Shown here: positions 1,787-2,730 of the stretch, in pieces
How the letters are laid out: the number at the start of each line of letters is the position of its first letter
Position numbering within the stretch: the first letter of the stretch is position 1
Origin: a virus
Lineage: Duplodnaviria; Heunggongvirae; Uroviricota; Caudoviricetes
DNA: 5,048 nucleotides
Direction: 5' to 3' (one strand)
Virus record (IMG/VR): IMGVR_UViG_2663763286_000012
Location: 1-5,048 of that record
Position numbers and translations under genes: made by a program
Notes under the pieces: model-generated
Databases searched by the model: none
Seen by the model: only the letters and a program-made list of their open reading frames with translations
Told to the model about the DNA's origin: nothing

Positions 1787-2730
1787 GCAATCCCCCTGTC
1801 TGCAAACTTCCCTTCCCGTACTCCCGTTAACGAATCTTCCCTCAGCAGGTAATCAAAATCTGCCGTCCAGCCCGTGTCGTTGTCTCCGAAGTAAAACGGC
1901 TTGGCCTGATGCACAAACGCCCTGACATACGCTCTGAAACCGTCCACGTTTGGCGTTTTCAGTTGCGGGATGATTTTCTTCAGGCGGCGTTTGCGTTTCT
2001 CGTTGACCGCAACAGCGTGTGGAAGTCTGTCACCGACTTCGGTGTTGTAGGCGTTCAGGAAGGATTCGTAGTCGATTCGTTCTGCCTTTCGACGTTCAGG
2101 TTTAACCTGCCCATCGCCTCCCCCATTGGGGGGTAGGGGGGTATTATTTATATTCTTGTTAATACCTTCTTGTTCATGATGTGCGGTTGTTTGTGCGGCT
2201 TCATGTGCGCTTTCATGTGCGGCATGCACTCTGAAAGCCGCGCCATTGCTGGCTTCGTCATGTGCGGCATCATGTGCGGTTGTTTGTGCGGCTTCATGTG
2301 CGGGTGAATCGTCCATTTTTTGAGCATATTCATGGTAATTTGTGATGGTAATCACACGACCTTTTTGCTTCTCTCCATCAATGGTGATCATCCCCTCTTT
2401 CACAAAAACCTGAAGCATCCGCTCAACCTGATCACGGCTTGCTGGCTTGCCATGCCTGTCGCATAACTGAAGACCTAAATCAGCTGCTGTCACAACCAGT
2501 TGACCGGGTTGCAGATGCCATTCATGACCTTTGAAATTCGCTTTGTATGGCTTTCTGGCGGCATTCAGGAGAAGGTTTTCCCACAGGGTGCGAAGATAAA
2601 CATCTTTCGCCCATGACTGTTTCAGAATGCTCCGGTACAACGGAATGTAACCAGTTTTCTGGTTCTCCATCCTGTTGCTCCTGCGCTCGTGTGCGGCGCT
2701 GAAATCGTAGATTTTTGCTGTATTGCTCAT
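1783..2730 (-). CDS. Phage replication initiator, lambda O-like (origin-binding protein)
   Basis: 315-aa ORF. N-terminus [10 protein letters not shown] resembles lambda O (MTNTAKILNF, from memory). The central low-complexity linker ([10 protein letters not shown] repeats) is encoded by the iteron DNA, as in lambda where ori lies inside O. It is translationally coupled to the helicase gene. Confidence 0.85.
2120..2303. other. Putative phage origin of replication (iterons, AT-rich tract, G/C-run element) inside the O-like gene
   Basis: In the direction of O translation the order is iterons (2303 down to 2180), an AT-rich tract (2142-2172, TATTATTTATATTCTTGTTAATACC), then C5ATTG6TAG6 (2120-2141). 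This matches the lambda ori layout of iterons followed by an AT-rich unwinding region. Confidence 0.6.
2180..2303. repeat. Iteron array: eight 12-bp-phased direct repeats with core TGTGCGG (plus strand) in two clusters of four
   Basis: TGTGCG(G/C) starts at 2180, 2192, 2204, 2216 and at 2261, 2273, 2285, 2297, exactly 12 bp apart within each cluster. A 31-bp perfect direct repeat occurs at 2179-2209 and 2272-2302. All lie inside the O-like CDS and in frame with it. Confidence 0.75.

Follow-up and report, generated by a model that had tools for sequence, protein, structure and literature searches.

A probable origin iteron array of 12-bp direct repeats within the O-like initiator gene of a lambdoid prophage

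The replication origin of phage lambda, oriLambda, lies within the gene of its own initiator: the iterons occupy the central part of gene O and are followed by an AT-rich tract, the nucleoprotein complex formed by O (the O-some) opens this tract, and the C-terminal domain of O recruits the helicase (PMC7466680, PMC3349717, PMC6022878). The number of iterons varies from four in lambda to six in the Shiga toxin (Stx) phages (933W, P27). The repeats vary as well, since lambda, P22 and L each carry distinct ones in O or in gene 18 (Zaworski et al. 2021, PMC8022706). In Salmonella phage L, gene 18 carries six inexact 11-bp repeats annotated as a putative rep_origin (MW013502; PMC8022706); this origin was inferred from the sequence and from old genetic data on module exchange (PMC8022706). 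P22 gp12, for its part, is cited as a DnaB-type helicase (PMC8022706). Here we analyse a stretch of 5,048 nucleotides (the window; positions 1 to 5,048 of the IMG/VR virus record IMGVR_UViG_2663763286_000012, Caudoviricetes), in which an O-like gene on the minus strand carries an array of short direct repeats. We consider it very probable that a lambdoid (P22/HK97-like) prophage has its replication origin here, inside its own initiator gene, and that the array provides the iterons.

The core of the array reads TGTGCGG on the plus strand and CCGCACA on the coding strand. This heptamer occurs eight times in the window against 0.76 occurrences expected, and none of 200 shuffles reached eight. Seven exact copies fall within 2180-2303 (starts at 2180, 2192, 2216, 2261, 2273, 2285 and 2297), and the eighth phased position, 2204, carries the one-base variant TGTGCGC. 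The cores are thus arranged in two clusters of four, and within each cluster their spacing is exactly 12 bp (Table 1). The initial annotation of the window had described eight TGTGCGG cores in two clusters of four; the clusters and the 12-bp spacing stand, while the count has to be amended to seven exact cores and one variant. The longest exact repeat in the region, 31 bp, recurs after 93 bp (2179-2209 and 2272-2302), in agreement with the same annotation. Because 12 and 93 are both multiples of three, the repeats are kept in frame (xCC-GCA-CAy), and the DNA signal appears in the minus-strand open reading frame (ORF) as a repetitive, disordered (A/Q)-H-rich linker; a repetitive linker kept in frame had already been proposed. 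We found no inverted repeats in 1950-2450: the units are direct repeats without dyad symmetry, and a search for a dyad hidden in unit pairs was likewise negative. A search of the 5-kb window, and of this stretch only, found no other repeat array. In gene orientation the array is followed by the AT-rich tract and then by the C5ATTG6TAG6 element, both of which the annotation had picked out. One further exact TGTGCGG, at 2690-2696 (+), lies outside the array in codons 12-14 (AAH) of an optional 20-aa N-terminal extension of O. A connection with the array is improbable, because the peptide DFSAAH is also present in S.Inf 5-2-type genes, which have different iterons.

In its layout the window resembles oriLambda. 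Both arrays sit in the middle of the initiator gene, in the linker segment between a DNA-binding N-domain and a partner-binding C-domain; in both, repeated initiator sites are followed by an AT-rich tract (about 38 bp in lambda); and the two N-domains belong to the same Pfam family (Phage_rep_O). To these likenesses the relatives described below add that the repeats are selected as DNA and travel with the N-domain. The repeats themselves differ. Lambda iterons are 18-19 bp long with an internal dyad, each taken by an O dimer, and stand four in one row, whereas those of the window are 12-bp direct repeats in a 4+4 arrangement, with none of the dyad symmetry of the lambda units and with an unrelated core sequence. 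The partners differ too: lambda uses P together with host DnaB, and the window a DnaB-type helicase encoded by the phage. The initial proposal of a lambda-type origin logic carried by a different iteron sequence and geometry is thus borne out as far as sequence can tell, from the order of initiator and helicase genes, the array in the linker and the AT-rich tract to the synonymous constraint, the linkage to the N-domain and the 12-bp direct repeats.

Plasmid iteron origins (pSC101, R6K, P1, F) also combine a winged-helix Rep protein with direct repeats, variable in copy number, beside an AT-rich unwinding element. Their iterons are 17-22 bp long, are usually set about two helical turns (~22 bp) apart in non-coding DNA and are usually accompanied by DnaA boxes. 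The window shares with them the direct repeats, a presumed winged-helix initiator and the AT-rich tract, but its repeats are spaced at 12 bp, lie inside an ORF and come without an excess of DnaA boxes; repeats of 17-22 bp, DnaA boxes and a non-coding location are all missing from the array.

Short direct repeats are not unprecedented in lambdoid origins, because phage L has an 11-bp version. In sequence, the phage L array shows the same two-block plan and spacer as the family of the window: it has 3+3 units, a 44-bp gap, the spacer ACCAGTAATGACGCGGCT and an AT tract, compared with 4+4 units, a 45-bp gap, the spacer motif GCCAGCAATGGCGCGGCT and an AT tract in the window. An AGTAATG(A/G)CGCGGCT motif is found in the spacers of both, and in both the array lies in an O-like gene followed by a DnaB-like helicase gene. 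Sequence and period of the units differ (the phage L unit TGTCCAACGGA is 11 bp long and out of frame, the window unit CCGCACAT 12 bp long and in frame), and the two initiators are distant homologues: the O protein of the window and phage L gp18 are 22% identical over aa 1-312 (BLASTP, E = 1.4e-10). The window array extends the lambda origin paradigm, with a short-repeat variant already noted in phage L, and introduces no new principle. In the literature on CUS-3, P22-like phages, iterons and lambdoid origins we found no description of the CCGC(A/G)CAT iteron type.

To compare the array across relatives, we assembled 47 loci, one genome per species, from Enterobacterales and their allies (Xenorhabdus, Brenneria, Yersinia, Proteus, Pantoea, Citrobacter, Atlantibacter and others), with N-domains 49-84% identical to that of the query, and gathered in addition 80 near-identical viral contigs. 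Forty-four complete genes (N-domains 60-85% identical) could be brought into register, among them two phage genes and that of the window. The geometry is the same in all 44: n units at 12 bp, a gap of 45 bp from start to start, and n units again, with n = 3 in 25 genes and n = 4 in the remaining 19. Defined by this geometry alone, with no motif filter, the 302 units have the coding-strand consensus (C/g)-C-G-(C/a)-(A|G)-C-A-T-a-a-n-n.

The codons of these units show that the repeats are selected as DNA and not as protein. Alanine is encoded in the units by GCA (134) or GCG (109) and never by GCC or GCT, while outside the arrays the same 44 genes use GCC 240, GCA 235, GCG 183 and GCT 148 times; the ratio of CAT to CAC histidine codons is 241:1 in the units versus 119:78 outside. 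Where a residue is exchanged (H to Q, L or N; A to E), the CCGC(A/G)CA core is largely kept, with one core base altered in each case. Unit positions 9-12 have diverged between units and the core has not. Synonymous identity, computed codon by codon, averages 0.51 in the N-domain and rises to 0.95-1.0 some six codons ahead of the first unit, staying at that level over the cores and CAT-GAA-CAA-GAA-GGT; codons -6 to -2 of the left flank are already at 0.95-1.0 against the baseline of 0.51. Fixed synonymous sites, biased codon use in the units and a core that largely persists through residue swaps could not result from constraint on the protein alone. Phage L provides independent support for a DNA signal: its repeats, with a period of 11 bp, run through all three frames, so the equivalent repeats cannot be a protein repeat.

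In every one of the 44 relatives the AT-rich tract directly adjoins the array, and the 40 nt past the last unit have a mean GC content of 24% and a maximum of 35%. At its start, CAT GAA CAA GAA GGT is invariant at synonymous sites. In the window the tract contains two copies of TTCTTGTTNAT (2153-2163 and 2167-2177; AACAAGAA on the coding strand), 14 bp apart, and two AACAANAA octamers at the same 14-bp distance are present in the tract of 30 of the 44 genes. A 7-bp inverted repeat in the tract (GGTATTA/TAATACC) is probably due to chance, most relatives having no copy of it and carrying GGTAATAAC... instead. The central spacer is of the same length in every relative (33 bp, corresponding to the 45-bp gap), and its codons are only partly constrained at synonymous sites. 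Its motif reads GCC-AGC-AAT-GGC-GCG-GCT in the window (peptide SNGAA) and ACC-AGT-AAT-GAC-GCG-GCT in phage L. Motif and length are common to O families with wholly different cores (S.Inf 5-2, ENT1 and phage L; loci L007, L008 and L138, the last at 923-966), and the motif could act in the peptide, in the DNA as the site of a shared factor, or in both.

The element next to the AT-rich tract, C5ATTG6TAG6, forms a hairpin in the predicted DNA fold, and a similar C5..G5 dyad occupies this place in genes with three different types of C-domain (HK97 type, ENT1 and that of locus L050). A C5-N(2-4)-G5 dyad preceded by ACCCCC-TTA is found at 2120-2141 in the window, at about 1697-1708 in L008 and at about 2017-2029 in L050. 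We considered and rejected the idea that C5..G5 is a loading site specific for the type of helicase: the partner is of DnaB type in the window and ENT1 but lambda-P-like in L050, and all three have the dyad. The dyad is absent from 44 of 50 relatives and synonymous changes occur inside it; the element may represent only Pro and Gly codons.

The O protein was modelled with AF2 (AlphaFold2) from an alignment of 15 sequences (mean predicted local distance difference test, pLDDT, 59). Its N-domain is predicted to be a winged helix-turn-helix (HTH), with helices 82-88 and 99-111 and a beta hairpin spanning 115-129, made of strands 115-120 and 124-129; in the model, aa 99-111 would be the recognition helix and aa 115-129 the wing. 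Residues 138-217 are featureless, with pLDDT 22-47 and no secondary structure, and the array encodes aa 143-186 within them, so that the array segment is predicted to be a disordered linker between the folded N-domain and a helical C-domain. When the model was compared with the PDB by Foldseek, the matches were all winged-helix proteins (among them MarR, CodY, ArsR and eS10/eS25), consistent with the fold but no proof of it; the O sequence itself had no match in the PDB at E-values up to 1.

All units of a gene have the same base at position 5, A in 21 of the 44 genes and G in the other 23. The A-type genes all have Asp as residue 100 (21/21) and the G-type genes all have His (23/23), and residue 82 is Ala or Pro in the former and Ser or Thr in the latter; each of these residues stands at the beginning of one of the two HTH helices. 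On an N-domain tree computed with columns 82 and 100 left out, the A/G state of position 5 requires at least two switches. Thin as it is, this covariation suggests that the O N-domain may be the reader of the units. More distant N-domains, 46% identical (S.Inf 5-2, ENT1), keep the plan of two blocks, 12-bp phasing, a PSNGAALK spacer and an AT tract. Their cores are xCGAT(G/A)AACCA in Salmonella phage S.Inf 5-2 and G(T/A)CGA(A/G) in Enterobacter phage ENT1, and the residues aligned to position 100 are Gln and Lys, respectively.

As in classical lambdoid O genes, the iterons travel with the N-domain and not with the C-domain, which mosaic genes show. Klebsiella phage 2b LV-2017 and Yersinia phage vB_YenM_29.18 carry the same N-domain and a CCGCACA array joined to unrelated C-domains, and their next genes encode a P-like protein or a 'DNA replication protein'. 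Conversely, the HK97-type O genes (HK446, ST104 gp18, Stx phage 1717) have the same C-domain, helicase and 2100-2157 junction as the window with a different N-domain, and their iterons are four dyad-symmetric repeats of the ATTAGCCgacttGGCTAAT type spaced 20-24 bp apart; HK446 served as the control for dyad detection. The C-domains of P22 gp18, HK97 gp54, ST104 gp18 and the 1717 O protein (Eru2A) are near-identical to that of the window and their helicase partner is the same (gp12/gp55/Eru2B), while their N-domains are unrelated in sequence. Eru2A and Eru2B have been described in PMC8044961. Window positions 2100-2157, comprising the junction of the AT tract and C5..G5, are 82-87% identical to the HK97-type genes; judging from these alignments, the junction between the N- and C-modules is at the AT tract.

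The array also varies in length. O proteins of 264/284, 295/315, 326/346 and 357 aa (P0001, P0008, P0014, P0044, P0061 and others) form clusters set apart by complete units of 31 aa (93 bp), corresponding to one to four blocks, and these variants evidently arose by unequal recombination between the 31-bp perfect repeats. Smaller variants of the array, by 12 or 24 bp, are also seen among the O alleles.

The anatomy of the array, the DNA-level selection on its repeats, their linkage to the N-domain and the disordered linker were obtained directly; by homology with oriLambda we infer O binding and its stoichiometry, unwinding, helicase loading and origin activity. On this model, the N-terminal winged-helix domain of O would bind the eight 12-bp direct-repeat units of consensus (C/G)CGC(A/G)CAT-A-A-N-N, set in two blocks of four around the fixed 33-bp spacer. 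The resulting O-some would destabilise the adjacent 36-bp AT-rich tract at 2143-2178, and the C-terminal domain of O, the presumed recruiter of the helicase, would bring the phage DnaB-type helicase (410-1786) to the opened DNA. The 12-bp spacing and the lack of a dyad would favour head-to-tail occupancy over the lambda-style arrangement of one dimer per palindromic iteron.

Several observations weigh against the origin assignment or parts of it. Without dyad symmetry in the repeats, the lambda model, with an O dimer on each iteron, is not directly transferable. Single-cluster variants (284 and 264 aa) are common in genomes, which means that a second cluster is dispensable or that the prophages carrying them are defective. 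The covariation of residues and base rests on about two evolutionary switches, and the same pattern could arise if the HTH segment and the array had recombined as one block. The structural matches of the N-domain to winged-helix proteins are weak (Foldseek E >= 0.03). Finally, we found in the literature no experiment on the O type of the window or on any Eru-type Stx phage origin; of the replication proteins of the Eru-type Stx phages nothing is known, according to PMC8951638, and the papers on these phages (PMC8044961, PMC8951638) describe their replication as unstudied.

Three other explanations of the array have to be considered. The first, which we regard as improbable, is that the repeats are O-binding sites with a mainly regulatory role (autoregulation of the O-helicase transcript, control of copy number, handcuffing, or exclusion of related phages) and that replication starts elsewhere. 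Iterons in plasmids and in lambda do titrate the initiator and inhibit replication in trans (PMC3349717), the array lies inside a pR-type transcript, whose transcription bound O could impede, and the copy-number variants could tune such control. The AT-rich tract directly abutting the array in every relative argues against this explanation, as do the position of the whole unit, which is that of oriLambda, and the lack of a second repeat array in the window. A regulatory role and the origin role we favour are compatible and not mutually exclusive.

A second explanation holds that the repeats are not targets of the O N-domain at all but are bound by another factor, from the host or from the phage, or form a structure or signal in the mRNA. 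Families with different cores have the spacer motif and the right flank (CATGAACAAGAAGG) in common, which points to a ligand other than O or to a structural constraint, and RNA folding of 2100-2335 gives z = -2.66. However, the core changes with the N-domain family and with two HTH residues, which a shared host factor would not predict, and the RNA helices of the predicted fold fall mostly within the AT/G-rich part and the spacer instead of the cores. Searches for other signals argue in the same direction: no Rfam family matched at the gathering threshold, a promoter scan of 1700-3500 returned no promoter-like sites, and DnaA-box matches (5 versus 3.9 expected) were not above chance, with none in the origin region. 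We judge this explanation highly improbable. Two terminator-like matches inside the array are artefacts of its repeats.

The least probable explanation, that the repeats are only a low-complexity Ala-His-rich protein linker grown by in-frame duplication and have no function as DNA, would account for the in-frame periodicity, the repetitive peptide with its predicted disorder and the variable number of 93-bp units, as expected of slippage-prone coding repeats, but it fails on the 0 of 243 Ala codons that are GCC or GCT and the CAT preference in genes that use all these codons elsewhere, on the core largely surviving residue swaps at the cost of one base each, on the divergence of positions 9-12 beside an undiverged core, and on the 11-bp, three-frame repeats of phage L.

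If the array belongs to an origin, as is probable, this would matter beyond the prophage of the window. The same O type and iterons are carried by many sequenced Stx2a-converting phages of E. coli O157, a group of clinical relevance, and by P22-like coliphages (CUS-3, Kapi1 and JEP4 among them), and Stx-phage replication drives toxin gene dosage. What the analysis yields is an experimentally addressable putative origin, with exact coordinates, an 8-bp core consensus and a predicted recognition helix, for which a specificity swap is predicted: D100H in O together with A-to-G at core position 5. The array also shows clearly how one set of codons can hold both a DNA signal and a protein linker. 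A broader proposal is possible but rather doubtful: that this array, the CCGC(A/G)CAT family and the phage L origin form a second architectural class of lambdoid origins, in which direct repeats of 11-12 bp, set in two blocks of equal size, would be occupied head to tail by winged-helix initiator domains. Between the blocks, the invariant spacer (about 33 bp) would have a conserved motif (AGTAATGGCGCGGCT) independent of iteron specificity, perhaps a site for a shared host factor; Asp100 with A:T or His100 with G:C at unit position 5 would come near to a one-residue/one-base code; and unequal recombination of the 93-bp unit would tune origin strength or incompatibility.

From its ORFs and Pfam matches, the window as a whole covers the immunity and replication genes of a lambdoid prophage, most of them on the minus strand, in the order cI, cro, cII, O-like (Phage_rep_O) and DnaB-type helicase (Table 1).

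Table 1. Coordinates of the array, of the domains of O and of the other features of the window
Feature	Position	Strand	Remarks
Left flank of array	2304-2331	-	TATGCTCAAAAAATGGACGATTCA on the coding strand; DNA-level conservation
Iteron cluster A, four 12-bp units	2256-2303	-	plus-strand cores at 2297, 2285, 2273, 2261
Central spacer, 33 bp	2223-2255	-	gives the 45-bp start-to-start gap between clusters; motif GCCAGCAATGGCGCGGCT
Iteron cluster B, four 12-bp units	2175-2222	-	plus-strand cores at 2216, 2204 (TGTGCGC), 2192, 2180
AT-rich tract, 36 bp	2143-2178	-	22% GC; candidate DNA-unwinding element
C5ATTG6TAG6 element (C5-N3-G5 dyad)	2120-2141	-	junction of AT tract and C-domain; encodes TPLPPNGGG
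O-like replication initiator gene, 315 aa	1783-2730	-	Pfam Phage_rep_O at aa 20-132, E = 3.6e-15
Predicted N-terminal winged-helix DNA-binding domain, aa 21-137	2320-2670	-	AF2 pLDDT 70-87
C-terminal helical domain, aa 218-315	1786-2079	-	AF2 helices; same as HK97 gp54, ST104 gp18, Stx-phage 1717 O (Eru2A type)
DnaB-type replicative helicase gene, 458 aa	410-1786	-	DnaB_C, E = 9.2e-78; DnaB N-domain, E = 3.9e-13
Small ORF, 89 aa	144-413	-	no Pfam match; with the 90-aa ORF, flanks the replication genes
Small ORF, 90 aa	2733-3005 (about)	-	no Pfam match; hypothetical protein in Stx2a phage 981509
cII	3028-3321	-	Phage_CII, E = 1e-48
cro-like HTH gene	3441-3657	-	
cI-type repressor	3768-4427	+	HTH_3 and Peptidase_S24
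IS3-family transposase orfA	4722-5048	+	HTH_Tnp_1; runs off the window end

The helicase gene, which encodes the partner of O, overlaps the O stop codon. For O itself, many records use the internal ATG at 2670, giving a protein of 295 aa. Genes annotated as protein O or as replication protein are about 98% identical to the O gene in 48 Stx2a-converting phages as well as in CUS-3, Kapi1, JEP4, HF4s, Gally and TL-2011a. Approximately 71-4667 of the window (two aligned pieces, 86% of its length) is about 98% identical to E. coli prophages. Because this similarity ends at 4667, an insertion sequence (IS) element has apparently inserted beside the repressor gene, and the prophage may have been disrupted by it (4668-5048, +).

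A strong intrinsic-terminator-like hairpin followed by a T-run (AGAACGCTCGGTTGCCGCCGGGCG-TTTTTTATT) lies at 3052-3079 (+), antisense to the 3' end of cII and at the position of the lambda oop RNA terminator; it matches no Rfam family. In a close relative, Stx2a phage 981509 (LC487996; L001 611-3004), the helicase is 797 aa long compared with 458 aa in the window. The difference is a 339-aa insertion with LAGLIDADG/homing-endonuclease domains placed exactly in the Walker A loop (GMGK|T), absent from the helicase of the window, and from its sequence it looks like an intein. Some E. coli prophages carry an HNH endonuclease gene in the helicase region.

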